Origin: a virus
Length of the DNA: 64,000 bases
Strand: one strand, 5' to 3'
Virus record (IMG/VR): IMGVR_UViG_3300030103_003268
Coordinates: 30,477-94,476 of that record
Shown: positions 6,681 to 63,867 of the stretch, piece after piece
How the letters are laid out: the number at the start of each line of letters is the position of its first letter
Numbering within the stretch: position 1 is the stretch's first letter
The notes under the pieces: generated by a model
Seen by the model: only the letters and a program-made list of their open reading frames with translations
Told to the model about the DNA's origin: nothing
Databases searched by the model: none
Program-made: the position numbers and the translations under genes

Positions 6681-7344
6681 AAGAATGTATTGTATGTAAA
6701 AAAACCTTTACTCATGGTCGTTCCGACAAAAAGGTTTGTAGCCTAGAATGCAAAAAAACTCATCTTAAAGAATATTCTGCTAAATGGAGAAAACAAAATA
6801 AAGAAACTCTTGCGATTAAAAAATCTGAATATCAAAAAAAGAATAGAAAGTATATTACAGAACGAAAGAAAAAATGGCGGGAAACGAAGAGGCCACCATT
6901 GGAAAACATTAAATGTAAGGAATGTAATAAACTCTTTACGCCAACAACGAGGGCTAAAAAAATTATTTTCTGTTCAAGAAAATGTCAGTTTAATAATTGG
7001 CAAAAACAACCTAAAAACAAACTTAATTGGGCAGTTCAAGACGCAGTAAGAAGAGGTATGAAAGGCATTATTCATAAAAGTATATACTTTGAAGGGCTAT
7101 CCTTCACTATGGAAGAACTGAGAACTCATTTAGAAAACCAATTTGATGATTGGATGAATTGGGATAATCACGGTCTTTGGCACATAGACCATATTAAACC
7201 CGTAGCCTCCTTTGATTTTACATCTATGGAGGATGAAGACTTCAAGAAGTGTTGGGCTTTAGAAAACTTACAGCCACTTAAAGACACAGAAAATATGAGA
7301 AAGAATCATTATTACTATAAAGCAAAGGAGATGGAAGTATGAAA
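6660..7344 (+). repeat. 23-bp direct repeat flanking the HNH gene (6660-6682 and 7322-7344)
   Basis: gcaaaggagatggaag[a/t]atgaaa, one mismatch. Confidence 0.85.
6677..7342 (+). CDS. HNH endonuclease with N-terminal Cys-rich zinc-binding repeats (putative homing endonuclease)
   Basis: CIVC..CSLEC, CKEC..CSRKC; WHIDHIKP...NLQPL...ENMRK. Confidence 0.88.
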   Translation: MKECIVCKKTFTHGRSDKKVCSLECKKTHLKEYSAKWRKQNKETLAIKKSEYQKKNRKYITERKKKWRETKRPPLENIKCKECNKLFTPTTRAKKIIFCSRKCQFNNWQKQPKNKLNWAVQDAVRRGMKGIIHKSIYFEGLSFTMEELRTHLENQFDDWMNWDNHGLWHIDHIKPVASFDFTSMEDEDFKKCWALENLQPLKDTENMRKNHYYYKAKEMEV

Positions 7345-7512
7345 ACAAAATACATTACAGTAAAAGTGTCTTATGACACAGAAGAAACATGGGATATTAC
7401 TATGCAAGAAGTGAAAGAGATATTTCAAATGATGAACAATCTTAAACGGAATGCAATCATTACTGATATTGAACAGGGAGTGAATGAAAATGATGATGGA
7501 CAGGACGAATGA
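7339..7512 (+). CDS. Small hypothetical protein (57 aa), not in ORF track
   Basis: MKTKYITVKVSYDTEETWDITMQ...GQDE; ATGA overlap with HNH stop. Confidence 0.65.
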   Translation: MKTKYITVKVSYDTEETWDITMQEVKEIFQMMNNLKRNAIITDIEQGVNENDDGQDE

Positions 7513-7621
7513 ATTGCTGGAGGAATTATTGATGATGATTAGCAGAAGCAATAAAATATTAATGATGGTTAATGTAGTTAATATCGCAACAATTATTACA
7601 TTACTGGTGGTGGTATTATGA
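7484..7621 (+). CDS. Small protein with C-terminal transmembrane segment (45 aa), not in ORF track
   Basis: MKMMMDRTNELLEELL...NVVNIATIITLLVVVL; overlaps neighbours. Confidence 0.6.
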   Translation: MKMMMDRTNELLEELLMMISRSNKILMMVNVVNIATIITLLVVVL

Positions 7622-7812
7622 AGGATGAAGAATTTTACTTTGAAACATTGAAAGAAATAAAGAAAATGAAAGAGCACCTAGAAGAAGAATTAGAGGACTT
7701 AGAAATCAAACTGCGTTCTCTTAAATTAGTTAAAAGACAGATTATGGAACTTCAAGATGAAGTTGCTAAAATGCAAAAACAACCTGTTGGTATGCTTTTT
7801 ACTTTGAGATGA
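7618..7812 (+). CDS. Small coiled-coil protein
   Basis: 64 aa heptad-rich ORF, ATGA overlap. Confidence 0.6.
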   Translation: MKDEEFYFETLKEIKKMKEHLEEELEDLEIKLRSLKLVKRQIMELQDEVAKMQKQPVGMLFTLR

Positions 7813-7816
7813 TAAT

Positions 7817-8710
7817 ATGAAAGTAGTTTATGGACATACAGATTCTATCTATGTGCAGATAGATTCGGTGGAACAAGCACAAAAATCAATTAAAAAGATT
7901 GAGGCAAAAGTGCGTGAGAGTTTTCCTAATGTAATGGGATTAGACAATCATCCTGTTGTTCTTGAGTTTGAGAAGTATTATTCGGCATTGGGTGTAGGAA
8001 CAACCAAAAACAGAAATGCAGGTTTAGTATCTTGGGAAGATGGAGAATGGTTAGAAAAGCCAAAGTTTAGCATGACTGGCTTTACGGCAAAGCGAGTTAG
8101 TGAAACAAAATTAGCAAAGAGAGTTCAAACTAATACTCTTAAAATGTGGGTTGAAGGTAAAACACAAGCAGAAATTGTGCAATACTTACACAGAGAATAT
8201 ACAACCGTTCTTGATGGGCAGATTAGCATAATGCCTCTTATTAAAAGAAGTCGTCTAAGGAAAAATCGTTTCACAGTAAAATGCCCTGAATGTAAAACAC
8301 AGTATCATTTGCGTGATTGTGTTCATTTAAAGCATGAAGTTTGTGAAAAGTGCGCTACTCCAACAAAACAATTTACTACTCTTGAGGGAAAGAAGCCGAC
8401 AATTGGTTCAGGTATTGCTGGCGTTTTATATGCTTGGGAAAAGAAAGATGCTAATTTTGATGACTCTTATATTTACTTAAAAGTAAAGGGTGTAAATGAT
8501 TTTTATACGCATCCTTTAACGCATGAAAGGCGAGAAGTTGAATACATATCAGGCACAACCGCTAAGGATTTAGGCAGTTGTAGAGCAGACTTAGCCTTCT
8601 ATTCGCAACAGGTTATCAAGAAGGCGGAACCCATTTTCAAGGCTATGGGATGGGACACATCGGCCATACGCACAGGAAAAATACAGTCAAGCCTTGACGA
8701 ATGGTGGTGA
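7817..8710 (+). CDS. polB: Family B DNA polymerase, C-terminal part (motif C, thumb, Zn-finger insert, PIP box)
   Basis: VVYGHTDSIYV (motif C), LEFEK, KNRNAG, CPEC/CEKC, C-terminal QSSLDEWW. Confidence 0.92.
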   Translation: MKVVYGHTDSIYVQIDSVEQAQKSIKKIEAKVRESFPNVMGLDNHPVVLEFEKYYSALGVGTTKNRNAGLVSWEDGEWLEKPKFSMTGFTAKRVSETKLAKRVQTNTLKMWVEGKTQAEIVQYLHREYTTVLDGQISIMPLIKRSRLRKNRFTVKCPECKTQYHLRDCVHLKHEVCEKCATPTKQFTTLEGKKPTIGSGIAGVLYAWEKKDANFDDSYIYLKVKGVNDFYTHPLTHERREVEYISGTTAKDLGSCRADLAFYSQQVIKKAEPIFKAMGWDTSAIRTGKIQSSLDEWW

Positions 8711-37557: not shown

Positions 37558-38802
37558 TCAAAGGTTTCCTCCAACCATTTTATGAATATCAGCCCAATCC
37601 ATTTCGGCTAATTCTTCCATTGTGGGGAGTTTGACGGCGGCTTCCTCTTGAGCCTTAATGATGTTATCTCTCTCAGTCGTCAAAGACTTTCGGAGAGAAG
37701 CAAATTCATTCTTAAGAGAAGCGATTTCGCTTTGAGCATCATATTGAGCCTTAGCAAGAACATTTTCTCTTGAAGAGGTTTCAGCCTTGAAGCGAGCCTC
37801 AAATTGCTTTTGGAGGTTGTCGTAGGCTAACTTTTCAAGTTGTTCTTGACGGAAAGCATCGTAAGCCTTCTCAATGTTGCCAACGCTCAAATCAAGAGTT
37901 TCTAACTCTTCATTGTTGAATGCCTTAACAACTGGCAAATCAGAAGCCTTTGGTCGGCCTCCCTCAATGACGATTCTATCAGCAGGTTCGCCAATTTCTA
38001 CACCTGCTCCATCAAGAGTAGAGACATAGGCTTTGGCTTCATCATCCATAAATTCGCCCTTCTCATTCATCATCTTGTCTTTCTCAGACATCATTTTGTC
38101 CTTCTCAGACATCATGTTTTCGTCTTCCATCAACTTTTCCGACATCATTTTTTCGTCTTCCATGTCCATGTTTTCTTCTTCTTCTTCCTTTCTTAGCATA
38201 TTGACTTCTTCCATAAGAGCGTCAAGTTCCGCTAATGCTTTTTCAATTTTGGTCATATTTTTCACCTTTTTTGTTTTTTCTTGTTTTAAAATATCAAATT
38301 TTGCTTCTGGGTTAATTCCTTTCTCACAAATTGTGACTTCATGTAATTCTAACTTTGAAATTTCGTTGTATTGTCCAAATTCATCATTGGTTTTCTTTAC
38401 TTTTTCTAAAGCCTGTCCTCCAATACTAAAACTTCTTAATGAACCTTTTCTAATGCCTCTGTTAATTTCTTTGGCCTTTTCAATATCATCTCTTAATTTG
38501 ATTACTACAAAAAATCCTACATCATCAACTTCTGTTTTGAATAATCTTCCTGATTTATCTCGGTATGATTCAACTACTTCTCCGACTTGAACATTTGAAT
38601 GATTGGTCATTACATTTCTAAACTTTGGGTTCTCCATGTATTTATTTACCGCTTCTTTAAGGGCTTTGAGTGTGATTAAATCATTTTGCTTATCAACGAT
38701 TTCAATGCTTGCATATCCTCCAATCATCAAGTCGTCTTGGCTTTTTAGAATCCTGAAATCGTGAGCGTTGTTCCTCATCACCGCAGAAGTCATTCTTCTC
38801 AA
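37558..38802 (-). CDS. Prohead protease fused to scaffold region
   Basis: IGGYASIEIVDKQND, H(SN), SFSIGG, LHEVTICEKGINP; coiled-coil C-terminal half. Confidence 0.9.
   Translation of the reverse strand: MRRMTSAVMRNNAHDFRILKSQDDLMIGGYASIEIVDKQNDLITLKALKEAVNKYMENPKFRNVMTNHSNVQVGEVVESYRDKSGRLFKTEVDDVGFFVVIKLRDDIEKAKEINRGIRKGSLRSFSIGGQALEKVKKTNDEFGQYNEISKLELHEVTICEKGINPEAKFDILKQEKTKKVKNMTKIEKALAELDALMEEVNMLRKEEEEENMDMEDEKMMSEKLMEDENMMSEKDKMMSEKDKMMNEKGEFMDDEAKAYVSTLDGAGVEIGEPADRIVIEGGRPKASDLPVVKAFNNEELETLDLSVGNIEKAYDAFRQEQLEKLAYDNLQKQFEARFKAETSSRENVLAKAQYDAQSEIASLKNEFASLRKSLTTERDNIIKAQEEAAVKLPTMEELAEMDWADIHKMVGGNL
38070..38170 (-). repeat. Short tandem coding repeat (MMSEKDK) in protease/scaffold linker
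   Basis: KMMSEKLMEDENMMSEKDKMMSEKDKMMNEK, ~21-nt unit. Confidence 0.7.
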
Positions 38803-42303: not shown

Positions 42304-42549
42304 TCACTCCATCTTTGAAACCATTTTATGAATATCTGACCAATCCATGCTAGAAACATCAGTAGTGGGTAATGAGTCAAAACCACCAACGGTATTATCC
42401 ATAGCAGGAGTAGGGCTATTAGAAACAACTAAACCAGCCTTAGTCAAAAGACTGTCCTTTGCATAGATTGTCTTTTCTAATGCTTCAACCTTTGCGGTCA
42501 AAGCCTTAATAATTTCTAAAACATCTTTGTTAATACTTTCTTCTGTCAT
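42304..42549 (-). CDS. Small scaffold-like protein sharing the protease C-terminal motif
   Basis: Coiled coil plus MDWSDIHKMV. Confidence 0.7.
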   Translation of the reverse strand: MTEESINKDVLEIIKALTAKVEALEKTIYAKDSLLTKAGLVVSNSPTPAMDNTVGGFDSLPTTDVSSMDWSDIHKMVSKME

Positions 42550-47473: not shown

Positions 47474-47763
47474 TAACAATTCCACCTTCTTCTGGCGGCT
47501 CTTGCTTTTTCGCTGTAAGTTCCATCTGCTCGCTTAAATCCTCTTGACCTAGCACAAAAAGATTTACGCCTCTTTGCTGCTTTACCGCCAGGTTTTAATT
47601 TACTTGGTTTTTTGGTGACTGGACGCTTTAAATTAGCACCCGTTTCTCTTTTGAATTTAGCACGACCCTTAGCACTTAATCCACCCGTTCTTGCGTGAAT
47701 CTTTTTATTGTAGCCTTTAAAGGGCTTCTTTTTCTTTTTAAGAATATTCTGCCATTCCTCCAT
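47473..47763 (-). CDS. Very basic protein with WxxILK leader
   Basis: MEEWQNILKK; GGLSAKGRA...NLKRP...RRKSFCAR...RRWNC. Confidence 0.75.
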   Translation of the reverse strand: MEEWQNILKKKKKPFKGYNKKIHARTGGLSAKGRAKFKRETGANLKRPVTKKPSKLKPGGKAAKRRKSFCARSRGFKRADGTYSEKARAARRRWNC

Positions 47764-47772
47764 TATATCACC

Positions 47773-48141
47773 TCAATATGCGGGTCTTCGGAAATCGCTA
47801 TCAGTCGGCATTCTTGGACTTAGGCTTGTTTTCATTCCTTGTCTTGCCTGTTGTGCTTGTTGTTGTCCTTTTTGTTGTTGCCTTTGTGCTTGAGAAATCC
47901 CCCGTTGAATAGTTTGAAGGCCAACAAAGACATTTCCTTGATTTTTAAGATAATTAGTTAGAACCGAAGAATATACGCCTAAAGAACCTTTTGCTTGATT
48001 ATACGCATTTAAATCATTTTGATTTTGAAACTTAATCCCATCAGCAGTAAATTGGGCTTGTTGTTGTCTCCTGCCAAAAAATTTCTCAATATCTTCTGGT
48101 TTCGCTTTTAAAATTTCTTTCCAATCATTCATACTTTTCAC
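47773..48141 (-). CDS. Gln-rich protein with WxxILK leader
   Basis: MNDWKEILKA. Confidence 0.65.
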   Translation of the reverse strand: MKSMNDWKEILKAKPEDIEKFFGRRQQQAQFTADGIKFQNQNDLNAYNQAKGSLGVYSSVLTNYLKNQGNVFVGLQTIQRGISQAQRQQQKGQQQAQQARQGMKTSLSPRMPTDSDFRRPAY

Positions 48142-48704: not shown

Positions 48705-49127
48705 TCACCTATTTTCTTCTTTAAATCTTGAACTAGTTTCAGGAACGGGGTTCTTTCCTTCTAATTTTCTTCTTGTTGCTTCGGCACTATTCATATCATG
48801 AATTTGATAAGAGTTTTTATTGTCATCAGGTTCTTCATCTTCTTCAACAATTTGGTATTGATAACTTGGTGCGCCTAATACTTCAAATATTCCTCTATCT
48901 AATACAACACATCTTCCTATGTATTGGTCGCCCATAACAGTCCAAGGTTGAGGATTTCCCCTAGTTCTCATAACATATCTTAAATTTTGAAGTGCGTCTT
49001 CCCTTGTTGGAAAAATAGTTTCTCCATCATCATCTGAAACAGCATTCCAATTACGCATTCTGCTAGTAGCCTCACCCTTTATCATGGCCTTGAAACCATT
49101 CTGCTTGATAACGGATTTCCATGTCAT
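48705..49127 (-). CDS. Hypothetical protein with WxxVIK leader
   Basis: MTWKSVIKQ. Confidence 0.65.
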   Translation of the reverse strand: MTWKSVIKQNGFKAMIKGEATSRMRNWNAVSDDDGETIFPTREDALQNLRYVMRTRGNPQPWTVMGDQYIGRCVVLDRGIFEVLGAPSYQYQIVEEDEEPDDNKNSYQIHDMNSAEATRRKLEGKNPVPETSSRFKEENR

Positions 49128-49268
49128 TTACTCGCTTCCTTTTACTTTCTTAACATATTCACGAATTCTTTTGGCCTGACTAGTGTGCATAGCAATTGCT
49201 TTATCTAATTCTTTAGCAATCTTTTCCAATTCGCTTACATCTTGTTTTAGTATTTCTTCCCACTTCAT
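49128..49268 (-). CDS. Small protein with WxxILK leader (46 aa), not in ORF track
   Basis: MKWEEILKQDVSELEKIAKELDKAIAMHTSQAKRI... Confidence 0.7.
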   Translation of the reverse strand: MKWEEILKQDVSELEKIAKELDKAIAMHTSQAKRIREYVKKVKGSE

Positions 49269-52172: not shown

Positions 52173-53609
52173 TCAAAAGTTCAAGCCTATGGTGGACGAA
52201 AAGCCCTGTTGTGGTCGTTGTGGCTCATCTCCAAACAGCCCTAAATCGTCAAGGAGTATGAAGTTATCCGAGGCTTGGTATGTGGCCGCATTTGCTAAGG
52301 CGAGGCTCATCACCATGTCGTCGTGCGCCCCAATTCCTTCAAACTTCCCTCGTTCAGTAATCGCAAACATTGACAATTCCTCAATCAATAAAGAAGAAAC
52401 CTTTCTACTTTCTTCATTGCCGTATGGGAAGTTAATCTTGCCATTTTCAAGAGACATTTGTAAATTGAGAATAATCTCCTGTTTCTTTCTTCGGGTTGTG
52501 TCAAAGTCATGGACATTCACATCAGCAACTTGACGAAGTTCTTGAGTAAATGATTTAGCGAATGTGTTTGTTTCAAAAAGAATAACTTCGGGCCTAAACA
52601 CTTGATTTAGTAATTTTACCTTTTGGATGTTTTCTCGGAACTGAACATTTTTTGCTCGGTCAATATACACAATAGATTTATTTTCGTTCTCGTCCATTTC
52701 AAGAACAGTAATGACATTGTAATCTCCATCAGTAGAAATAGCAGGGTCTACACCTATGAAGTATTTATATCCTTCACGCTTCAATGGCTTCAAAACCAAA
52801 TCTTTATTCTTTGCATTATCTAAATGTTCGGGATTAAATAGAGATGTTCCAGTTGAAATCGGAACGCACATATATTCCCGTGTGAACATTAATGAACCAA
52901 CTTCTGCCTTACGAGCCATCAATGCTTCGTAGTTCCATCGGTCAGGCCACAACGGTTCGTTTAGTGCATTTAGACAGGGATAAGTATTTACCGTATAAGC
53001 AGGATTTTCTGCTAATTGTTGATAAATATCTGTATAACTAAAAGGCGTTCCAATAACACGCAAAGAAGCGGTGTGGTGAAGTGTTGGAATCATATCACCA
53101 TAAAACCAATCAGTCACTTTTTGAATACCTGTCATACTAAACTCTTTCAAAGGGTCGTCAATAACAATTTCTTGAGGGTGAAGTCCACGAATCTGTGAAC
53201 CAACCGACCTTTCAAGGATTTGGTTTCCATTGGTTAATGTAATGTTTCCAATAGCCCAACCTCTTGCGGGTTTAAATTTCTTAAGCATCGGGTGGGTGAA
53301 CATTTTATCAATGTCTCTCATGTGAACGAGGGTCTGCTTTTGGTTAGAAGAAATGTAAAGCATTTGATATGGTGGCTCTTCAAAAATTAATTTCCATACG
53401 ACCCAACTGTGCATAAATACAGATTTACCGTGGTCGCGTGAACAGATGATAACTGTTCTTTGGGTAGAGTTCATTAATTCGTGCCATTCTTGGATGTAGG
53501 AAGGAAAATCAAAACCTAACACATTTTGAAAGAAATAGGGAAATGAATTGCGGGACAATTGCATATCCATCTCATGTTCAAAATTGAAGGCTTCTAACTC
53601 CATTGTCAT
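52173..53609 (-). CDS. terL: Terminase large subunit
   Basis: SRDHGKS Walker A, IVIDD Walker B, IGTP, GVDPA nuclease, HDDMVMSLALA. Confidence 0.93.
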   Translation of the reverse strand: MTMELEAFNFEHEMDMQLSRNSFPYFFQNVLGFDFPSYIQEWHELMNSTQRTVIICSRDHGKSVFMHSWVVWKLIFEEPPYQMLYISSNQKQTLVHMRDIDKMFTHPMLKKFKPARGWAIGNITLTNGNQILERSVGSQIRGLHPQEIVIDDPLKEFSMTGIQKVTDWFYGDMIPTLHHTASLRVIGTPFSYTDIYQQLAENPAYTVNTYPCLNALNEPLWPDRWNYEALMARKAEVGSLMFTREYMCVPISTGTSLFNPEHLDNAKNKDLVLKPLKREGYKYFIGVDPAISTDGDYNVITVLEMDENENKSIVYIDRAKNVQFRENIQKVKLLNQVFRPEVILFETNTFAKSFTQELRQVADVNVHDFDTTRRKKQEIILNLQMSLENGKINFPYGNEESRKVSSLLIEELSMFAITERGKFEGIGAHDDMVMSLALANAATYQASDNFILLDDLGLFGDEPQRPQQGFSSTIGLNF

Positions 53610-55192
53610 TCCTCTTCTTTCTTATTTTGTTCACTTTCTTTTAAGTCTCTCAGTCGTGCCTGTTCCCTATCATCGGCTTCCTTCAAGTTCATTAAGAATT
53701 TTTTGTATTCAACCACAACTGCTTCAATTCTAGCAGCCATTCTTATCTTTTTCTTTTCTTTGAATCCCTTATTTGCTGTTCTTGCATTAATCATATTCTT
53801 TGCGAATTTATCTATTCCAAGAGTTTGCATTTGTTCTAAGTTCTTTAAATGTTCTTTTCTGGTTAATCTAAAGGATTCTCTATCTCCTCGTTCTGTCTTT
53901 ATATCAGCAATTCTAATGCTATTTATCCAGTTTTGATACTCAACTTGTGCTTCTTGGTAGTCTGTTCTTCTCGCAGAAGCCTCAGAAAATCGTGCTTCGG
54001 CCTCTTCTATTCTTTTTTGCCTTGCCTTATCATCCTTTATATGTTCAGAATGGCCCGCATAATCTCCGCCTTCATGTCCCCTTTTAATCCCAGTTCCCCA
54101 AATATCATAAAATGTATTGAAAGAAGACAATGGATAACTCTGAGTAGTTGGTCTTACGCTGTCTAAAAATATTAAAACCTTTTTTAAGGGATTTCTCCAC
54201 ATAGACTTTCTATCAAATTTATTTTTATCTTTGCCTACAATTGGTGAAGAACTACTCAACATATCAGTTCCTTCATTATAATTTTGTGGAAAAGGAGCAA
54301 ATGTAATATAAGCAAAATCTTCGGGATTGTCTGTCAAATAAGCCCAACCCGCAGTTCTAGGACTTGATTCTCTTATTTTATCAGCCAACTCAGGTAAAAG
54401 GTCTGTTCTTTTTGCAGCAGGATGGTCTGCAATTCTTTTACTTTTTGCTCTTACAAGATAATGTGGTCTATAAGCAATATTATGTTCTTTGCTATATTTG
54501 TGAGGATTGTCATTGTCTTTTCTAGCGGTGCTGAGTATTTCAGTTTCATTGTCAGTGTCATCTAACATTGTATTGAATGTGCTATCTGGTAAAATCTTTA
54601 AAATATTTTTCCAAGACTTTTCAAGGGTTTCTTGTTTAAAAAGATTAAACCATGAGGGCGCAGGGTCGTCAAGATAAACACACTTCGCAAACTCACCCTT
54701 TCCACGAATATTACGAATAGCCCAATTACCATTAGGGTATGCACTATTCCATTCATTTACTACTGATTCAGGGAGCAATTGCTTCATTTGTTCCCAATTT
54801 TCACTATCTGGAAAAGCCCATCCATTCTGTTTTGCAGTAGCAATCCAACGAGCATTATCTCCATCCCTGTGTCCAAAAGCAGCAACTAAGGGCTTAGATT
54901 GGTTTAACTGTGGCTCTCTCGCATCTTGTAATGCACGATTATTTCCACCAATCTGCCTTCCTTCGGCAGAAGCATACATTCCACCAACAACAGTATGAGA
55001 AGGATGTTCTTTAAAACCAACTGTTGATATTGCCTTATCTTCATCATTTACACGAATAAGCCAATTGTCTAAAGCATAAAGACCAGTTTCTAAATCCTTT
55101 CTGCGAGTATATGGGTCGTCAGGATTATCCTGAGCAAACCTTCTTTTCATATCTTCATATGAAAAAATCGCAGGAAGAACCTTAACCATCAA
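53606..55192 (-). CDS. Two-part protein: possible GNAT-like N-terminal domain, internal WxxLFK/WxxILK motifs, second domain
   Basis: VGGMYASAEGRQIGG; SWFNLFKQ and SWKNILKI. Confidence 0.6.
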   Translation of the reverse strand: MMVKVLPAIFSYEDMKRRFAQDNPDDPYTRRKDLETGLYALDNWLIRVNDEDKAISTVGFKEHPSHTVVGGMYASAEGRQIGGNNRALQDAREPQLNQSKPLVAAFGHRDGDNARWIATAKQNGWAFPDSENWEQMKQLLPESVVNEWNSAYPNGNWAIRNIRGKGEFAKCVYLDDPAPSWFNLFKQETLEKSWKNILKILPDSTFNTMLDDTDNETEILSTARKDNDNPHKYSKEHNIAYRPHYLVRAKSKRIADHPAAKRTDLLPELADKIRESSPRTAGWAYLTDNPEDFAYITFAPFPQNYNEGTDMLSSSSPIVGKDKNKFDRKSMWRNPLKKVLIFLDSVRPTTQSYPLSSFNTFYDIWGTGIKRGHEGGDYAGHSEHIKDDKARQKRIEEAEARFSEASARRTDYQEAQVEYQNWINSIRIADIKTERGDRESFRLTRKEHLKNLEQMQTLGIDKFAKNMINARTANKGFKEKKKIRMAARIEAVVVEYKKFLMNLKEADDREQARLRDLKESEQNKKEEE

Positions 55193-55195
55193 ACA

Positions 55196-57691
55196 TCACC
55201 TAAAAGATGCTTTGATTAGATAAACTTGTTCACTACTGATACCATATTCTCTTGAGATATTCTCATGAGAATCAATAGCCTTAACGATTTGTTCAACTTC
55301 AAACGAAGTCAAGTCAATATTATCTTCAACCTGCATCTGAGTAATCATCTTATTAACTCCATAATCGTTCATAGGAATTTGGTTATAAATTACTTTCTTC
55401 CCTAATTCTTCTCTAATGGCATCATGGGCCTTCAATAACTTGTGAAGAAGAACAGGCAAGTCCACTTGAGCAGATTCAAAGATAGCCTTTAATCTATTAT
55501 ATGCTGCCTTTTTAGCAGGACTTCCTTTTGTTAAAATACCTTGGTTCATATCTAACCAATGAGGCAAGGCAAATACAGCGAAGGGTTTTCTAGCATAAAA
55601 ATCTTTAAAGAAGTCTTCACTTCTTTCAACAATGGTTTTGCCCGCAAATTTATTGTTCGCTCTCTTCATATCGCCAGTTTCTTGCATATAATGATAAAGT
55701 AGTGCTGCCGCATAGTTGTCATTCTTTTCTTCTGTTTTGCTTCCGAAAATATTAGTTAATGCATCAGCAAACTCTTCTGCATCACTAATAATTTCAGTTC
55801 CAATCTTAACTTCAGGCATAAAAATACTATCTAAGAAATCAGCAACTGCGTTCATATCACCGACATCAATTTCTTCTCTTGAGCCAGCAAATAAAGTGTC
55901 ATAAGCACCAGACATAACAGTATCTAACCCTAAATCAAGACTTAATGTTTGTATTACCTTTGAACCGATGCCTGATGCAAAAGAGGGCATTTCAATGGGT
56001 AGCATACCACTATAAATAGGGTCAAAATAATATTTAATAGCAGAATCCATCATTTTCTGAAGTTCTTCTTTAAATCCTTGTAGTTCTCCTCTCATAGTTC
56101 CCTTTTGATTTAAAGACAACGGAACAGCCCCACCACTAATTTGACCGACAGTTGAACCTTTACCTTCATAATAATCAAATTGGCTTCCCCTTCCTCTTCC
56201 TTTAGAACTTCTTGCATCAACTTCAGCAATAAAGTCTTCATCTGATAAAATATCATATAAGTCATTAAAAAATTCTCTAATCGCAGGAATATTTTCCGAG
56301 CCTATCATTTCTCCTTCGCCAACAGAACGGAACTTATCTTTATTACCATACATTTTAGCAAATTTAGTGTTATCTAAAACAGAAACAGGTAAAGCCTGAA
56401 CAGGAGCATCTCCTTCACTAAGAATGTGAGTATCAACCGTTTGTTCTAACCATTCTTCAATGTCCACTTGAGTTTCTAAAGAAACCCCCTCTCCCTCGTC
56501 CAAATACTCAATCATATCTTCAAGCATCTCTTTAATTTCCGATTCCATTCTTGAGTTAATGGCTATTAATTTTTCTCCTCTAACATATTCGTAAATTAAT
56601 AGTGGGTCTGCCTGAGAAATAAGTGCATCGTATTCTTCTTCCCAAGTTGTTTTCTGTTGTAATTCTTCTTCCCATTCAGAAACATCAAGGTCAATTGCTC
56701 CGCCTTGGGTGCTACTTCCAGACGCTAAGGAAGATTCAAGATATCTAAGCATTTGAGCATTTACATCTCCTTCCATACCCGATTCATCAGCATATCCAGT
56801 TTGAGAGGTGTCTTTATCCATCATTCGGTCAATAGCCAACTTGTGAACAACAATGTTAAAGAACCTATGATAGCCGGATTCAAATGGGCGAGTGATGTCT
56901 TCAAACTCAGCAATATATTCTAAATTTATACGGCCATCAAGAATTTGTTTATATAGTTTATTAAATTTATTTTGAATTTCTTCAGGGAAGTCAATATTTT
57001 CAACTTCAATAAAGAAATTAGCCATATCTTCTTCAAACTGTTCATAAAGTTTCCCAATTCCTGCCCAATAATTATATACTTTTTTACGGACAGATTTTTT
57101 AGACACATCAGTTGCTCCTAAAAAGTCGTTCATATTAATTTTAAACTCTTTATATTCAGCAACATCTAAAGTATCTTCAAGGGCTTCTTGAATTAATTCT
57201 AAATTGTGTCTAAAGTTTTCAGGCAACTTAACAGCCTTATTTGATACGATTGCATTTATTTCTTGTAGCACATCTTTTCTAGGATTTCTAATATCAATTC
57301 TTCCTTTGATTTTATTACTAGTCAATTGAACAGAAGTAATCCTTGCACCTTGATTATACATATTTAAACGCAAAAATGGCTTAACTACCTCTTCCATGCT
57401 ACTTGAAGCAAGTTCGGTTTTCTTTGCCTTTTTTCCTTTCATTTGTTCTCTAATGTGCTTTCTTGCTCCTTTGGCTTTTCCAGCAATTTTACTAAAAGCA
57501 AGTTTTCTTGCACCCTCTTCTTCAATTAAACGAGCCTTATCCTTTAAGGCATTAGTAAATCTAGTAACAATACTTGCGATTTCTGTTCTTTGTTCTGACT
57601 TATCGGAAAGAGCCAAACCTTCAACTCTTTCGGGAGATAAATTAAGCATTTCCTTTTCTTCTGGAGTTAAAAGTATCGTTTCCTCTGTCAT
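55196..57691 (-). CDS. Large acidic protein (possible internal virion protein)
   Basis: 831 aa ORF. Confidence 0.7.
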   Translation of the reverse strand: MTEETILLTPEEKEMLNLSPERVEGLALSDKSEQRTEIASIVTRFTNALKDKARLIEEEGARKLAFSKIAGKAKGARKHIREQMKGKKAKKTELASSSMEEVVKPFLRLNMYNQGARITSVQLTSNKIKGRIDIRNPRKDVLQEINAIVSNKAVKLPENFRHNLELIQEALEDTLDVAEYKEFKINMNDFLGATDVSKKSVRKKVYNYWAGIGKLYEQFEEDMANFFIEVENIDFPEEIQNKFNKLYKQILDGRINLEYIAEFEDITRPFESGYHRFFNIVVHKLAIDRMMDKDTSQTGYADESGMEGDVNAQMLRYLESSLASGSSTQGGAIDLDVSEWEEELQQKTTWEEEYDALISQADPLLIYEYVRGEKLIAINSRMESEIKEMLEDMIEYLDEGEGVSLETQVDIEEWLEQTVDTHILSEGDAPVQALPVSVLDNTKFAKMYGNKDKFRSVGEGEMIGSENIPAIREFFNDLYDILSDEDFIAEVDARSSKGRGRGSQFDYYEGKGSTVGQISGGAVPLSLNQKGTMRGELQGFKEELQKMMDSAIKYYFDPIYSGMLPIEMPSFASGIGSKVIQTLSLDLGLDTVMSGAYDTLFAGSREEIDVGDMNAVADFLDSIFMPEVKIGTEIISDAEEFADALTNIFGSKTEEKNDNYAAALLYHYMQETGDMKRANNKFAGKTIVERSEDFFKDFYARKPFAVFALPHWLDMNQGILTKGSPAKKAAYNRLKAIFESAQVDLPVLLHKLLKAHDAIREELGKKVIYNQIPMNDYGVNKMITQMQVEDNIDLTSFEVEQIVKAIDSHENISREYGISSEQVYLIKASFR

Positions 57692-59976
57692 TCTTCCTCA
57701 TCTCCTGTGTCTTTAATGATTCCAAGCCTTTGAAATTGAGTGTTTGCTACGATTACTTTATTGTCTGGGAAATTTTGTGGCTTATTTACAAACTCTTCCA
57801 GACGGGCTTTAAACGCAACAATGATGCTTTCTTTGATATTAGATATAATGCTTGGCATTTTCTTATTTAATTCTCTTGCGGCATCCTTGGCCTCTTGCGA
57901 ATCGGGGTTATCGTCTATGGTCTTAAACGCTTCCCTGACTTCTTCATTTCCAGCCAGTTCATCTACTTGAGCAAAGAAACTAAGGCTTCTTTCGGGAGTA
58001 ATTGATTCTAAAGCGGTGGCTTTGTTTGCCATTTCATCCGCAAGCCCTAAAAGTCCTCCCTGAGAAGACAATTTTTTACCAGTAGATAATAAATATTGTT
58101 CAAAATTGTCCATATTTAATAATTCTTCACGAAGAGCGTCAAGTTGTTGAGTCATATCAATTTGTTCTTTACCTTGTGCTCTTTTTTCTGCTTGTTGAAG
58201 CCGTTGCTCAAGATTCTTAATCTTTTCATCGGCTCGCCGCTTAGATTCTTCTTTTGTTGCTCCTGCTCTTTGTTTTCTAGCAGTAATCAATTTTTCCTTT
58301 AATCCAGCAACCGTTGTTTCTGTTGCTTGTCTTTGATTATCTGAAGTTTCAGCAGTTCTGCCCTTAATGTCTGCCTTGTATGCTTCTTCGGGAGAAATAA
58401 TGTCTCCTTCAACATTAAATACTGCATAATTAGCAAACTGTTTTCCATCTCCTTCAACCGTTAGCATTTGCCCCGACTCATCATATTGTTTATTTCCCTT
58501 TTCATCAAGGTCAGGTGCGATAAACTTTGCTTTTCGCCCATCTTTAAAATACTCCACAGAATATTCATCTTCTTCAGGTTCGGGATTGCCTTCACCTGCT
58601 GGAACTCTTGTTAAACCTGCCGATTTTAAATATTTTTCATAAGCAGTGGCCTCTTTAATTGTAAAATTACCTTCAAGGAATTGTAAAGACTCTCTTTGTT
58701 TCTCTAATGCGGCTTCGCTGATAGAAGTTTCTAATCTATCGCTTTCTTTAATGGTGTTTCTAATTTCAGCAGTAATCTTTTTTCTTGATTTTGTATTAAC
58801 ATCATCAATTCTAAATGGACGGACTCTAATCCCGTCTTTTGTAGTTGTTTCTCCATCAACTAATGCTTGATAAATCCCATCAATGATTTGTTCTGTGGCT
58901 TGTTCTTCTGTAAGGTTCTGTTGGATTCTTAAGGCATCAAAGAAAGGTTTTTCCCATTCATTGGGAAACTCATTTGTCAAAATAATTTGAACAAATGGGT
59001 TCACATTCATTGATTTTGTGCTAGATTTTGCTAAAAATATGACATTTGCGAAGGAAGCACCGTTCTCAAAGTTTTTTGGCTTAAATGCTTCAATACTTCC
59101 AGGAATTTTATTAACTGCTCTAATATATTTTATAACAGACGCGCCAGTAAAGGGTTCAACTATGGCTTTTCTTTCTTGTGAAGCAACAAAAATCTTTTTT
59201 CTGCGAACCATATCATCAACTTCAACAGTTTCGCTACCCGAAACGAACAACATTTTAGTATTTGTCTTACTTCCATCAGGATTTCTCATAATTTTATTGT
59301 AAGTTTTCTTAACTTTGTCTTTTTGCTTAATGGTAGCGTCATCGTCAATGATTTCTTTTGTCTTTTTATTTCTCTTTGGAACCATTAGAGCGACAAGTTC
59401 GCCATTATTCTTTAAATCTGTTAAAATAGAGCCTTCTTTCAGTTCCCCTTCAATTGCTTCGGCAAAATCGGCCAAAAGTTTTTCATTTTGTGGGGGATTT
59501 TCAAACATAATTACAGATTGTCCTGATTTTTCACGCAAAATGTCTAGGGCATCTCTAATATCTCGGTTTCTTTTAAGTGTTCTTGTTGATAAATCAGCAT
59601 TTTGCTCAATATTTTCTAAAATTTCATTGACTTTTTGCTCATCATCGTTTCTTTTGGCTTCCATAGCCTCACGAAGAAGTTTTCTTACATCATCAATTGT
59701 CATAAAACTAGCGGCTTCTTTCAGTTTTTGAACATTTTCTTTCATTTGGTCAAGAGTTTGGTCGCCCATTGGTGGTTTTGAGTAAAGTCTATGAAGTTCT
59801 TCTATATTTAATTGACCTGTTTCTACACTTCTTAACAATTCTTTGAGTTTTTGTGGGGGAGTTTTGAGATTTTGAATGTCCTGAATGGCTTTTTCCATTT
59901 GTTTTGAACTAGCAATAACTAATCCCAGCATCGGTTTATTGACTGGAATCATTTTCAGTTGCTCAAACCAACTCAT
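57688..59976 (-). CDS. Large protein with W-leader; true start probably ATG 59976
   Basis: MSWFEQLK preceded by the repeated RBS element. Confidence 0.7.
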   Translation of the reverse strand: MSWFEQLKMIPVNKPMLGLVIASSKQMEKAIQDIQNLKTPPQKLKELLRSVETGQLNIEELHRLYSKPPMGDQTLDQMKENVQKLKEAASFMTIDDVRKLLREAMEAKRNDDEQKVNEILENIEQNADLSTRTLKRNRDIRDALDILREKSGQSVIMFENPPQNEKLLADFAEAIEGELKEGSILTDLKNNGELVALMVPKRNKKTKEIIDDDATIKQKDKVKKTYNKIMRNPDGSKTNTKMLFVSGSETVEVDDMVRRKKIFVASQERKAIVEPFTGASVIKYIRAVNKIPGSIEAFKPKNFENGASFANVIFLAKSSTKSMNVNPFVQIILTNEFPNEWEKPFFDALRIQQNLTEEQATEQIIDGIYQALVDGETTTKDGIRVRPFRIDDVNTKSRKKITAEIRNTIKESDRLETSISEAALEKQRESLQFLEGNFTIKEATAYEKYLKSAGLTRVPAGEGNPEPEEDEYSVEYFKDGRKAKFIAPDLDEKGNKQYDESGQMLTVEGDGKQFANYAVFNVEGDIISPEEAYKADIKGRTAETSDNQRQATETTVAGLKEKLITARKQRAGATKEESKRRADEKIKNLEQRLQQAEKRAQGKEQIDMTQQLDALREELLNMDNFEQYLLSTGKKLSSQGGLLGLADEMANKATALESITPERSLSFFAQVDELAGNEEVREAFKTIDDNPDSQEAKDAARELNKKMPSIISNIKESIIVAFKARLEEFVNKPQNFPDNKVIVANTQFQRLGIIKDTGDEEE

Positions 59977-59992
59977 TGTAATCTCCCCTGTT

Positions 59993-60304
59993 TCACATAC
60001 CCATCCTACTATAATAAGAGGTATCAAGATGGAAATGTCCACCACCAAAATCGACGATATACCCAAATTGCTTAACTCTATCAATGTCGGAATTAAATTT
60101 CGCTCTCGTATCTAAAAGTTTTTTATAGAGTTCAATAAACTTATCAGAAGAAATGTTGTTTTCCATATCCTTAATCAAATTCATAAATCCTTTGCGGTCT
60201 TGGGGTGCAAGTTTATATGCCATTTTTTCAAAGGACTTTTCTAACTTAGCAACAAGTGTGTTTCTTTTGGCTCTTTCGTTTTTTAAGATAATTTCCCAAC
60301 TCAT
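59993..60304 (-). CDS. WxxILK-leader cassette protein
   Basis: MSWEIILKN. Confidence 0.7.
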   Translation of the reverse strand: MSWEIILKNERAKRNTLVAKLEKSFEKMAYKLAPQDRKGFMNLIKDMENNISSDKFIELYKKLLDTRAKFNSDIDRVKQFGYIVDFGGGHFHLDTSYYSRMGM

Positions 60305-60320
60305 TGTAATTTCTCCTGCA

Positions 60321-60512
60321 TCAATCTAAACTTTGGTCTGTTGCATCAATTGTTATTGTTTTACCAACCAATTTCTTAATTTTTCCATCCAATACTAAGG
60401 CGACCATTTCTCCCGTATCAGCAATTGTTAAACTACCCGAAACACCTTTTTGGGAAGAACCATCGTCGTAATTTAGAACTAATTTATTTTTTAATATATC
60501 TTCCCAACTCAT
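60321..60512 (-). CDS. WxxILK-leader cassette protein
   Basis: MSWEDILKN. Confidence 0.7.
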   Translation of the reverse strand: MSWEDILKNKLVLNYDDGSSQKGVSGSLTIADTGEMVALVLDGKIKKLVGKTITIDATDQSLD

Positions 60513-60529
60513 TGTAATCTCTCCTGCAT

Positions 60530-60952
60530 TTATGGCAATTTTATCTGATTGATGGTTTCCACAATTTTTCTTTGAAGTTCTTCAGTTATTTCATCCACCC
60601 AATCGTATTTATTCCGATACATCCAACCGGAATCCCAATTTCCATTTCTCCTACTAACAGTAAATGTTGGCTTAAGCCCCCACCTTCTATTGGACTCTGC
60701 TGGTAATTTAGTGAATCTAACATATGCCTTAATATGTTCATCTTCTTTTTCTTCTTCTGGATAAAATGTAAGTTTAATGTCAATTAGCATATTGCCTCGT
60801 TTTGTCCTTTTATTAACTTCTAGTTCCCCATAAGGGTTTAAACGGGGCTTATTGGGAGTGTTACGATATTCTTCAATAAGAGAGTTGATTTTATTTTTTA
60901 TTGGTTCAATAAGTAAAGTAAGTTCTTGTTTCAATATATTTTTCCAAGTCAT
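60530..60952 (-). CDS. WxxILK-leader cassette protein
   Basis: MTWKNILKQ. Confidence 0.7.
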   Translation of the reverse strand: MTWKNILKQELTLLIEPIKNKINSLIEEYRNTPNKPRLNPYGELEVNKRTKRGNMLIDIKLTFYPEEEKEDEHIKAYVRFTKLPAESNRRWGLKPTFTVSRRNGNWDSGWMYRNKYDWVDEITEELQRKIVETINQIKLP

Positions 60953-61623
60953 TGTAATCTCTCCTGCATTTTACTTTTTATGTCCAGCCAAATCTCAGGA
61001 TTGTTCTGTGCTAATACTTCTTGAACAATTTGCATCTGTGCGATAACGATAGTATCTTGTCTCTTATGAATCAATTTACCCTTGAACTCCATAAGATACT
61101 TCAAAGATTCTCTAATCTCTCTTGCTAACTTAGTTAGGGCATCAATCATCCTTGGGTCAAGGTCATTACCCAAATCATTGAACACTTGCTCTAAACGCAT
61201 ATCTAACTTCTGCACATTGTTTGAAAGCAAATCAACTTCATTTACTTCCTTTTTTGCTATCATCATGGCCGCAGATTCTTGGACGATTGGTGCCAAGTGG
61301 TGCTTCATGTGGCGTTGCACCTGTGTTTTTGTGGTGCCTAGCGCAGAAGAAACAGCCTCACTTGAGATATTACCTTCTTTTAGTGCTTGTTCGTAGTGTT
61401 TCCTCATTGGGTCTGTGCATAGAACACATTGAGGATTTGACGACATTTTGTATTCGCCCATGTGGTTTCTTTGATGTTGTGCCGCAGTTCCACTTCTCCA
61501 GTTATGAATAGTGTCTAATTCATCGCAAGTCGCCTGTCCTGTTTCAAGGGCAGATTCAAGTTCTTCCCTGTTCGGTGCTTGACAAAGACCACAACGCTTA
61601 CGATTAACTGTCATATCAATCAT
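60949..61623 (-). CDS. Probable terminase small subunit (duplicated CxxC...HxxxH Zn/HTH units)
   Basis: CGLC...HQRNH and CVLC...HMKHH, helical C-terminus; upstream of TerL. Confidence 0.6.
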   Translation of the reverse strand: MIDMTVNRKRCGLCQAPNREELESALETGQATCDELDTIHNWRSGTAAQHQRNHMGEYKMSSNPQCVLCTDPMRKHYEQALKEGNISSEAVSSALGTTKTQVQRHMKHHLAPIVQESAAMMIAKKEVNEVDLLSNNVQKLDMRLEQVFNDLGNDLDPRMIDALTKLAREIRESLKYLMEFKGKLIHKRQDTIVIAQMQIVQEVLAQNNPEIWLDIKSKMQERLQ

Positions 61624-61864
61624 CCTTTAATTGGTCTAAATATTTTTGATATTGAGCAATTTTCTTTTTACAATGTTCTTTAATGTATTTAATGTCTTTT
61701 TGAACTTCTACATCGCTTCTTTGTTCATCATTCATACCCATAATATGCTCAACATAATTGTTAAATTCATTAGGGGTGTCGCCCATTGAACCCCAAAATT
61801 TACTTTTAGAATAAATAGGGTGATAATTTTTTTTACTAAATTTCTTTATTTCATCTTTCCACAT
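61616..61864 (-). CDS. Small protein with W-leader variant
   Basis: MWKDEIKK. Confidence 0.6.
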   Translation of the reverse strand: MWKDEIKKFSKKNYHPIYSKSKFWGSMGDTPNEFNNYVEHIMGMNDEQRSDVEVQKDIKYIKEHCKKKIAQYQKYLDQLKDD

Positions 61865-61865
61865 T

Positions 61866-63029
61866 TTACTCTCTCCATAAAAGTTGTTGCCACATTTTAG
61901 AAATAACCTTTTGATTAGGATTCAATTTAAAATCATCATCTTGATATGTTTTTGGATATTTTTCTCTTGCTGTTTTTCTATAATCAAAACCAGTCTTTCT
62001 ATCATTTTGCCATGCTCGGAAACCATTCGGTGCTTTGTTGGTATTTTTTCGCTTTAGGGCTCTATCAACTAAATTTATGATAGGTAAAGCAGTAAGTGTA
62101 ATTCCAGTAACTGTTCCAGTTAAAGAATCCTTTTTTCCTTCTTCGCCCAAGTTGCTTACCCTTCTTGCTAGTGATTGTTCTTTAGCATTAGGCTTAATTT
62201 GAAAGTTTGTGGCTTTTAATTCAGAACGAACCTTATTTGTGAGTAGCCTTCCTCCAGCATTCCAGTAGGTATTACTACGAACAATTTTATTAAAAAATTC
62301 TTCAACAGACCGAATACCATCAACTTCACCATCAAATTGTGGAGGGATTCTCTCAACCTCAACTTCAATTTCCATATCATCAAGGTCTTCTACTGCTTGC
62401 TTCATAATCCACAAAAGACCTCTAGGATTCGCAAACTTTGTTTTAACTTTTGAGAATAATGCTTGATGGGGAGGATTTCCTCCCTCAAAACCATCAATGT
62501 TAATAACATGGGCTAACCATTCATCGGGAACTTTTGTTACGCCTTTATTTCTTTTAGCATACCATTCTGTCGCATAATGTCCTTGAACTTTACGGGGTCT
62601 TTTCTTTTGACCTGTTTTGGTTTTATCAACCTCAGTAAAAAGAATAAATGCGGGGTCACGCGCTGGCCCTTTTCCACCAGCATCGTCACCTTCACGGTAA
62701 TAACTTTCTAATGTTTTTGCTTGTTCTTTAATAATTTCCTCATGCTCACCATCAAACAAATCATTATCAACAATTGCTTCAATAAATTCAATAAACTCAA
62801 TAGCGCCTTCACCATCACGGCCCTTGTTTCTACTTCCGGCACGAATGTTGTTCATCATGTGGGTTTTAAGAAACATATACAAATTAGGAACATTCTTAAC
62901 CTGCATGGCTGCGCCTGAAATACCTTGACAGGTCTGCCTCCAAGTGTTAAATTCGTTCACAAACTTAAACTCAGTTTGATTAACTTTATTTCCTTTATGG
63001 GGCTGAAAGTTCTTTTTCTTCTTACTCAT
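61866..63029 (-). CDS. Hypothetical protein
   Basis: 387 aa ORF. Confidence 0.7.
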   Translation of the reverse strand: MSKKKKNFQPHKGNKVNQTEFKFVNEFNTWRQTCQGISGAAMQVKNVPNLYMFLKTHMMNNIRAGSRNKGRDGEGAIEFIEFIEAIVDNDLFDGEHEEIIKEQAKTLESYYREGDDAGGKGPARDPAFILFTEVDKTKTGQKKRPRKVQGHYATEWYAKRNKGVTKVPDEWLAHVINIDGFEGGNPPHQALFSKVKTKFANPRGLLWIMKQAVEDLDDMEIEVEVERIPPQFDGEVDGIRSVEEFFNKIVRSNTYWNAGGRLLTNKVRSELKATNFQIKPNAKEQSLARRVSNLGEEGKKDSLTGTVTGITLTALPIINLVDRALKRKNTNKAPNGFRAWQNDRKTGFDYRKTAREKYPKTYQDDDFKLNPNQKVISKMWQQLLWRE

Positions 63030-63867
63030 CCTTCTTCCTCCGCTTCTTTCTACCCCTTACCACCTTATTAAACATAGCGGGGGCTGATGTCGTGCTAACT
63101 GCACCAGTCATTTTAAGTTCACTATCATTGAAAGTAATACTGCTGTTAGGAAATTTATCAGCCGCCTTTAGTTTCTCAAAGAAATTTTTGTGCTCTTTAC
63201 CATATCTCTTAAGCCAAGTATTGATGTTATCAGGCTCTATTACTGCACTAAAGGTTTCTCTTGGTTTCTGTGTTCTGGCTGTCACTTCAAGTTTTGCTAA
63301 TTTATTCTTAATTTTATCCTTAATAACGGCATTAACATTTAACGAATCTGTCAAGACTTCCGCCCATGCCACAAACTTGGTTAAATCATCAATAGATTCT
63401 TTTTCTGCTGTGCCTTTAATATTGAGTATATTTGCTAACATGGGAGGAATAACTCTCGTTCTTACGGCGGGGTGTTCTAAATATGACCTTATTCTATAAA
63501 AAATATTATCAGGGAATTGCCCAGTAAAAGCACCATATTCCTTTGCTGCGTCATCCATTGGTAATTGGTCTAATCCCATGGCCGCATGTGTCGCTTCGTG
63601 CATAATTGCTCTAACAACAAATTCTTGGATTTCTCTCTCAGTTGGTTCTCTTTCTAGTTTTTCCTTAAGATAATCATATATTTTTACATGATTGATTCTT
63701 ATTTCCTCTTCCATCAAATCTTTCAAAGCAGGAGCCTTTCCTGCCAAAATAGAATTAAATATTTCCTTAGAGTCTATTGGCGCGCCCGAAATGCCATAAT
63801 GCCCAAAACCCCGAATATCTTTATCAAAGTCAATATCCTCAACTTTAAGAATACTAAACCAAGACAT
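63022..63867 (-). CDS. Zincin-like metallopeptidase with WxxILK leader
   Basis: MSWFSILK (ATG 63867, GGAGG RBS); AIMHEATH...E motif. Confidence 0.7.
   Translation of the reverse strand: MSWFSILKVEDIDFDKDIRGFGHYGISGAPIDSKEIFNSILAGKAPALKDLMEEEIRINHVKIYDYLKEKLEREPTEREIQEFVVRAIMHEATHAAMGLDQLPMDDAAKEYGAFTGQFPDNIFYRIRSYLEHPAVRTRVIPPMLANILNIKGTAEKESIDDLTKFVAWAEVLTDSLNVNAVIKDKIKNKLAKLEVTARTQKPRETFSAVIEPDNINTWLKRYGKEHKNFFEKLKAADKFPNSSITFNDSELKMTGAVSTTSAPAMFNKVVRGRKKRRKKDE

Follow-up and report, generated by a model that had tools for sequence, protein, structure and literature searches.

How does a viral genome come to hold a row of unrelated small genes that all begin behind a copy of the same short string, and how are such genes gained and lost? 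The question is raised by a locus in the IMG/VR virus record IMGVR_UViG_3300030103_003268, a genome of 94,476 base pairs (bp) rated 100% complete, of which bases 30477-94476 (64,000 nucleotides (nt), hereafter the window) were analysed. At this locus a conserved gene for a protein of 224 amino acids (aa) is followed by three small genes and by the gene for a large 762-aa protein, and the last nucleotides of the conserved gene recur at the head of the genes downstream. A sequence-only reading of the window had labelled the conserved gene terS, the small terminase gene, and had proposed that genes are added or lost here as cassettes, bounded by a ribosome-binding site (RBS) and a leader, through recombination at the repeat. 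The proposal is supported by repeat-flanked insertions and deletions in related viruses; the label is not. We consider it probable that the locus is a hyperplastic cassette array in a late operon, turned over by homologous recombination at repeats made up of RBS, start codon and leader codons, and we infer a role for its products as packaged cargo.

Every gene in the array region lies on the minus strand (Table 1). The 224-aa gene ends in ATG CAG GAG AGA TTA CAA TGA, and its stop codon overlaps the next start as ATGA. The repeat string, ATGCAGGAGARATTACAATGA followed by nTTGG, is 21-24 nt long and occurs in four minus-strand copies with 0-3 mismatches. Searched as the 24-mer GCAGGAGAGATTACAATGASTTGG, it lies at 60944-60967 and 60504-60527 (0 mismatches each), 60296-60319 (1) and 59968-59991 (2); with up to 3 mismatches allowed there was no further match in the window and none in 100 dinucleotide-preserving shuffles. 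The 21-mer ATGCAGGAGARATTACAATGA likewise has only these four copies in the whole genome, one at the end of the conserved gene and, as had been noticed from the sequence, three more after unrelated small genes, and none was found in a backwards control. Copies 2 and 3 retain the full six-codon frame of the gene tail right after the preceding stop codon, and copy 4, before the 762-aa gene, is the most degenerate and has lost the internal ATG. Each copy supplies an RBS (AGGAG), an ATG and the first codons of an M-S/T-W-x-x-I-L-K leader, also in agreement with the sequence-only reading, and the four genes downstream of the conserved gene all start M-S/T-W-x-x-(I/Q)-L-K. Once stripped of this leader, the three small genes fall into separate BLASTP families.

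Table 1. Features of the array locus, with positions in the window (ORF, open reading frame; HTH, helix-turn-helix)
Feature	Position	Strand	Basis and remarks
Conserved 224-aa protein gene	60949..61623	-	ORF; two CxxC...HxxxH modules, HTH-like helices, then long helices
Repeat master copy	60944..60969	-	Final 21 nt of the 224-aa gene with its stop (ATGCAGGAGAGATTACAATGA); overlap with the start codon ATG and opening leader codons of cassette 1
Cassette 1, 140 aa, MTWKNILK leader, ORFan, family F47	60530..60952	-	ORF, BLASTP family
Repeat copy 2, exact 21-mer	60504..60529	-	Directly after the cassette 1 stop (TAA); mini-frame of the gene tail kept
Cassette 2, 63 aa, MSWEDILK leader, ORFan, family F48	60321..60512	-	ORF, BLASTP family
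Repeat copy 3, GAGAAATTACA variant	60296..60321	-	Fits the 21-mer pattern exactly; 1 mismatch to the 24-mer
Cassette 3, 103 aa, MSWEIILK leader	59993..60304	-	Family without a second member in the 74 arrays compared
Repeat copy 4, degenerate (AAACAGGGGAGATTACAATGA)	59968..59993	-	3 mismatches to the 21-mer; heads the large gene
Large 762-aa W-leader protein, MSWFEQLK	57688..59976	-	Right boundary of the array, position conserved

The leader is not confined to the array. About 20 genes genome-wide start M-x(0-3)-W-x-x-[ILV]-[ILK]-K; every one is on the minus strand, and none turned up when the reversed sequence was searched as a control. These genes span window positions 29286-63867 plus record positions 255-1260 and include those for a 281-aa protein (63022-63867) and for the 762-aa protein. 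At the 12 W-leader genes of the window that lie outside the array, 7-14 of the 21 positions differ from the 21-mer, the Shine-Dalgarno contexts are different, and other codons are used for the same residues (for example, Ser is TCT instead of AGT). Because these genes vary in codons and RBS contexts, the leader is conserved as a peptide, which indicates selection at the protein level, and the 21-24-nt string is conserved as DNA only at the array. A generic RBS as the explanation of the repeat is ruled out by there being only four copies in the genome and by the 7-14 differences at other leader genes. Within the array the second leader codon always begins with A (AGT, ACT, AAT or ATT), as the ATGA overlap at the master junction (60949-60952) demands, and it does so at the internal junctions too; leader genes outside the array also have TCT or GAG in this place. 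This hints, if weakly, that the internal junctions are derived from the overlap junction.

The locus was then placed beside 80 related IMG/VR loci (1.1 Mb), compared by script. A cassette was defined as a small gene located after the conserved gene and before the first gene of 500 aa or more, called with a chain caller that favours leader starts and skips a few leaderless cassettes, and families were formed as BLASTP clusters with the leader stripped. Allowing up to 3 mismatches, the 21-mer has 158 matches in the 80 loci, none of them on the non-coding strand. The stop codon of the conserved gene accounts for 73, a further 83 lie no more than 2.5 kb beyond it, 2 precede the gene, and no match is more distant. 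The master junction is thus kept in 73 of the 80, and the number of string copies runs from 1 to 7 per genome, with a single copy in many genomes. Complete arrays hold no cassette in 6 loci, one in 12, two in 20, three in 12, four in 12, five in 7, six in 2 and seven in 1. The cassettes, about 208 in 74 arrays, form 129 families, 79 of them singletons, and neither an invariant gene set nor a string spread over the genome as a generic RBS was found. Order varies as well as content; family F1 occupies array positions 5, 4, 5, 1, 1 and 1, and both neighbours are shared in only 11 of 119 same-family cassette pairs. Even at 97-98% identity of the conserved protein the array is a different one in each genome, as the window and the four nearest relatives with a readable array (L001, L002, L003 and L055) demonstrate.

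The right boundary holds while the content changes. Homologues of the 762-aa gene, whose protein has no match in Pfam or PHROGs, follow the array in relatives at 22-86% aa identity. An 'empty' allele had been predicted from the window, and it exists: in L021 and L023 nothing separates the conserved gene from the homologue of the 762-aa gene, the two being joined by the same ATGA overlap, and in L019, L075, L058 and L060, too, a large gene comes directly after the conserved gene. A Pfam search of the three window cassettes and the 129 family representatives returned no recurrent family and two single weak matches only, and the 140-aa cassette belongs to only six protein clusters among 5.8 billion, all of them unnamed, from which five homologues were retrieved, all leader-bearing and of similar length. 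The capture of an untagged ORF in one step, which the sequence-only reading had also envisaged, thus finds no support here. The 129 representatives, when aligned, have only M1, W3 and K8 nearly invariant.

Turnover of genes in these viruses may reach beyond the array. Over 44-64 kb, a comparison with the most closely related complete genome, which is about 87% identical to the window elsewhere, leaves 47749-48097, 48707-49265, 53604-54635, the array and 61616-61852 without DNA match. Three of the four unmatched stretches outside the array are small leader genes, and gene turnover therefore seems to be concentrated on leader-tagged genes genome-wide.

What the repeat does at its junctions can be approached from its conservation and from the places where related arrays differ. 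The consensus of 137 internal junctions reads a.aaat..AGGAGagATTAcA directly followed by ATGAgTTGG.AAgAtATA.T.AAA; similarity covers roughly -20 to +24 and is strongest at AGGAG, ATG, TGG and AAA. Folding of the four 61-nt window junctions as RNA gave no excess of structure over shuffles (z 0.03, 0.73, 1.21 and 0.09), and terminator-like and bacterial promoter-like sites were at background level only, in a search limited to promoters of bacterial type. Such a profile would also suit a repeat that is kept mainly for expression, either as a unit of translation initiation or coupling (stop, six-codon mini-frame, ATGA restart) or as the site of a translational or RNA regulator. Turnover would then be mostly the work of illegitimate recombination and of selection for intact genes, and the repeat would mark junctions and not cause exchange. 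The copies are unstructured, as an open initiation region should be (z 0.0-1.2), their conservation peaks on the very elements of initiation, and the junctions are tightly packed, with an ATGA overlap or 17-nt spacing. The absence of the tail copy from two thirds of the junctions in relatives, and the variation of a distant lineage that lacks it altogether, fit this explanation too. However, the positions without function in translation, namely the ATTACA spacer and the upstream AAATGC, are copied as faithfully as the RBS, and other leader genes of the same genome manage with quite different RBS contexts.

L022 and L023 are 94-96% identical on both flanks of the array and differ by a 413-nt insert that consists of one cassette and one repeat and lies between 27-nt direct repeats. 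The same repeat-bounded pattern is seen in L053/L054, L008/L013 and L040/L041, and between the window and L001, L055 and L057, so that the breakpoints fall at the repeat as had been anticipated; in L007/L006 the switch comes at the end of the leader codons. Insertions or deletions of exactly one cassette plus one repeat between genomes so similar are the signature of repeat-mediated recombination, and we think it unlikely that the repeat is kept mainly for expression and only marks the junctions.

Recombination at the repeats is further indicated by cassettes that have travelled between genomes. The 140-aa cassette of the window stands at position 2 of L055 (84% nt identity), with homology that ends in repeats on both sides. 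Its 63-aa cassette is found in L057 (81% nt and 76% aa identity), and there, too, homology stops in the repeats; the conserved genes of the window and L057 are only 65% identical in protein and 69% in DNA. Among same-family pairs, 21 of 119 have cassettes more alike than the conserved genes of the same two genomes (for example, 84% against 57%), which points to exchange between divergent backbones.

Two other origins of the arrays have to be weighed against exchange, and we hold both to be most improbable. The small genes might be old tandem paralogues of a single leader gene that have diverged past recognition, as the leader and orientation common to all cassettes and a few within-array paralogues (F23 twice in L005, F15 twice in L026) would allow. 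The junctions, however, have 0-1 mismatches over 24 nt beside gene bodies that lack similarity even in protein, a sharp step that contradicts uniform divergence. Alternatively, the arrays might be chimeric assemblies joined at the short repeat, and several contigs do end in or beside the array: L025, L027, L029, L055, L059, L061 and L067 stop either inside the conserved gene or no more than about 1 kb past it. Ends in this place also fit strain-level heterogeneity, which would be expected to break short-read assemblies. The repeat, of at most 45 nt, is shorter than usual reads, and the same arrays (L070/L071/L072 and L010/L013), as well as the same units of cassette plus junction, recur in independent samples, all of which speaks against a general assembly artefact.

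Several observations weigh against recombination at the tail-derived repeat as a full account of the locus. The leader is present on 199 of 208 cassettes, a share inflated by the caller's preference for leader starts, and cassettes without a leader do occur (85 aa in L005, 60 aa in L008 and 66 aa in L028). In 47% of the 110 cassette-to-cassette DNA matches lying wholly inside arrays, neither end is more than 30 nt from a start codon, compared with 4.5% under random placement, a statistic that discriminates weakly, as any whole-gene presence or absence difference ends near gene borders. Internal copies differ from their own genome's tail by 1.95 mismatches and from that of a random genome by 2.88 +/- 0.25 (0 of 2000 permutations), a concordance that is compatible with recent duplication or gene conversion and also with shared descent, between which the test cannot separate. 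Only 29-36% of the non-terminal junctions in relatives are within 3 mismatches of their own tail 21-mer, and the window array, in which all three downstream junctions are tail copies, is unusually homogeneous. In the lineage whose conserved protein is less than 60% identical to that of the window (ten loci; L069-L079), 0 of 14 junctions are tail-like, yet the arrays hold 0-3 varying cassettes. All of the genomes are metagenome assemblies in which an individual cassette order could be chimeric, recombination is read from these assemblies, and any packaging or cleavage of leader proteins is putative. Because most junctions have no tail copy and the distant lineage varies without any, other routes of turnover must exist, and the tail copy is a lineage-specific aid to turnover, neither required nor its sole cause. 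Lineages with tail copies reach seven cassettes, and the distant lineage has only 0-3.

Within these bounds, the preferred reading of the array as a product of repeat-mediated turnover can be set out in full. The setting would be a late operon with the conserved gene, of DNA-binding type, on one side, the large W-leader gene on the other, and small ORFans between. Each junction would present a direct repeat of about 24-45 nt, made up of the last 17-21 nt or so of the conserved gene (the AGGAG RBS and ATTACA spacer), the start codon ATG and the opening codons of the leader. Through homologous recombination between such repeats, with co-infecting relatives or with copies within the replicating DNA as partners, cassettes would be deleted, duplicated, inserted and reordered, and because the crossover falls in the unit of RBS, start and leader, every product would keep its reading frame, its translation and its leader tag. 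In the complete 94,476-bp genome there is no match to the tyrosine recombinase family PF00589 (the control was positive in 14 of 14 genomes) or to the serine recombinase family PF00239. With junctions that are unstructured, no enrichment of terminators or promoters, and no recombinase, general homologous recombination at a short translated repeat in an operon would be the simplest mechanism.

The conserved gene does not bear out the terS label. Its protein is present in more than 100 IMG/VR contigs, with 55-99% identity among the 80 kept, and an alignment of 25 relatives has C11, C14, H50, H54, C66, C69, H105 and H109 invariant. The C-terminus reads ...PEIWLDIKxxMQE(R/K)LQ*. An AlphaFold2 model of low confidence (mean predicted local distance difference test score, pLDDT, 65) has two three-helix modules with the conserved Cys and His residues, followed by long helices. 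No terS signal was found in Pfam or PHROGs, the best hit of a PDB profile search was an unrelated protein at E 0.13, Foldseek returned nothing for the model at E<=0.001, and tblastn against phages gave only matches at E~1, to MarR regulators. The gene does not lie beside terL (52173-53609) either, from which it is separated by 7.3 kb that include the array and three genes (762, 831 and 528 aa). We have thus set the terS identity aside, and on its sequence we treat the product as a conserved zinc-finger/HTH-like protein.

A packaging role would nonetheless give the repeat a different meaning. In phage T4, the pac site in gene 16 recombines with a short homologous sequence in gene 19 and so amplifies the genes between (Wu, Wu & Black 1991, as recounted in PMC10893049). 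By analogy, the tail of the conserved gene could be a pac-like sequence recognised by the 224-aa protein as small terminase, with the extra copies acting as sites of protein-promoted synapsis and recombination. The master copy does lie at the 3' end of the protein's own gene, and the two conserved zinc/HTH-like modules and long helices of the model would be compatible with a DNA-binding oligomer. As in T4, a short sequence at the 3' end of a gene appears to recombine with downstream copies and to change the number of genes between. Gene 16 of T4, however, is packaging-related, whereas the upstream gene here has no terminase match by any method and is not adjacent to terL, and the products here are different genes and not amplified copies. 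All copies moreover share the coding strand and stand in phase with a start codon, and their number, from 1 to 7 with a single copy in many genomes, is hard to reconcile with such a site. The T4 parallel is weakly supported, and we judge a pac-like function of the repeat to be very unlikely.

The leader has resemblances of its own within the genome. The C-terminus of the predicted protease-scaffold protein (...EMDWADIHKMVGGNL) and that of an 81-aa protein (...SMDWSDIHKMVSKME) resemble M-S-W-x-D-I-L-K; the two tails are at 37558-37605 and 42304-42350, both on the minus strand. The HK97 protease carries a C-terminal tail that directs its own encapsidation. Because the leader resembles the tail of the S78 protease-scaffold protein, a function as a capsid-address tag is plausible; the leader could be a capsid-targeting or processing peptide and the cassette products packaged accessory proteins, possibly with anti-defence functions like the internal proteins of T4. 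In the 224-aa protein an invariant W-L stands inside a near-constant P-E-I-W-L-D-I-K motif eight residues from the C-terminus, just upstream of the repeated tail (60952-61000, minus strand). Its likeness to the N-terminal leader as well as to the tail of the protease-scaffold suggests that the DNA-binding-type protein may itself be targeted to the capsid.

Taken to its furthest extent, the homologous recombination scheme would make the unit of RBS, start and leader a self-propagating magrovirus 'cargo slot' that is recombination site, translation signal and capsid tag in one. Genes recombined into the slot would be expressed, packaged and injected, and the zinc-finger/HTH protein would bind the master sequence and promote exchange as T4 gp16 does at pac. 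We give this extended version little chance of being correct; if true, it would give Archaea an example of a cassette system for injected proteins that is encoded by a virus and works without an integrase.

The hosts of magroviruses are the Poseidoniales (Marine Group II), which rank with the most abundant archaea of the surface ocean, and to our knowledge both the viruses and these hosts are uncultivated. The window encodes a replication factor C-like clamp loader, a split family-B DNA polymerase, a PD-(D/E)XK nuclease and an ATP-dependent ligase, along with a portal, an S78 prohead protease, an HK97-type capsid protein and a tail tube protein. The nearest matches of the capsid protein are in haloarchaeal tailed viruses, at 24% identity. 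The polymerase is divided between two ORFs (4992-6680 and 7817-8710, window 4992-8710, plus strand), with a Cys-rich ORF of 221 aa (6677-7342) and some 470 nt between them. The gene set and the length of 94,476 bp agree with published magroviruses (PMC5434244), and we take the virus to be a magrovirus-like, marine archaeal tailed virus. A nucleotide search of the array locus against deposited phage genomes gave no match, and a term search of three magrovirus papers (PMC5434244, PMC10160649 and PMC11706807), on topics that varied with the paper, brought up no variable region, small terminase, leader, cassette or repeat.

The locus is a precisely bounded hotspot of ORFan turnover in magroviruses, where 74 genomes hold 129 families. 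Should the leader prove to be a capsid-address tag, the array would amount to a catalogue of proteins delivered into the host at infection, and the cassette proteins would be natural candidates for anti-defence functions, of which we know none in this archaeal system. The conserved flanks permit simple surveys of cassette diversity in seawater by polymerase chain reaction or long reads.

Among known systems, integrons offer one comparison, and the sequence-only reading had called the array integron-like with no integrase visible. That description holds insofar as the cassettes are co-oriented, promoterless and unrelated, vary in number and order, and are each bounded by a repeated site, and insofar as the complete genome lacks an integrase of the tyrosine or serine family. 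The defining features of integrons, an integrase and a folded site, are absent. Unlike an attC site, the repeat is unstructured, and it stands at the 5' end of the cassette and carries the RBS and start codons; the mechanism, too, would differ, being general homologous recombination. Membership among integrons is ruled out by the missing integrase and the unfolded repeat, and the likeness is one of analogy.

A closer likeness is found in the internal-protein (IP) loci of T-even phages, described by Repoila et al. 1994, as summarised in PMC2839356, PMC3012670 and PMC12373910. According to these papers, the leader of the T4 IPs directs packaging into the capsid and the IPs are injected anti-restriction factors (PMC3012670, PMC12373910, PMC2839356). 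There, as here, unrelated small proteins with only an N-terminal leader in common are clustered in a small number of highly variable, polymorphic loci with repeated regulatory elements at their flanks. The array leader differs in sequence from that of the IPs, with no detectable homology between them, packaging, removal of the leader by the prohead protease, as in the T-even IPs, and injection are putative here, and the prohead protease, unlike that of T-even phages, is of the S78 (HK97-like) type.

For the manner of shuffling, the nearest counterparts are the promoter-early stem-loop (PeSL) cassettes of T4-type phages (Arbiol et al. 2010, PMC2839356; Comeau et al. 2014, PMC4122927), in which recombination between homologous copies of the motif limits shuffling to a safe site and ensures that a newly acquired gene is expressed (PMC2839356, PMC4122927). 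Both systems have a short conserved motif repeated between non-essential ORFans in a hyperplastic region, and in both the insertions, deletions and replacements that distinguish close relatives break in the motif. PeSL cassettes also occur excised, as mini-circles. The PeSL is transcriptional, comprising a sigma-70-like promoter and a terminator stem-loop, whereas the array repeat is translational (RBS, ATG and leader codons), has no stem-loop, and lies inside an apparent polycistronic operon in a virus of a different host domain, the Archaea. PeSL shuffling and the T-even IP loci are the closest known systems. With the array, modular shuffling at repeats, as in the T4-type phages of bacteria, would reach into the archaeal viruses, and what is new in it is a shuffling repeat that is translational, not transcriptional, and copied from the coding 3' end of a conserved neighbouring gene.

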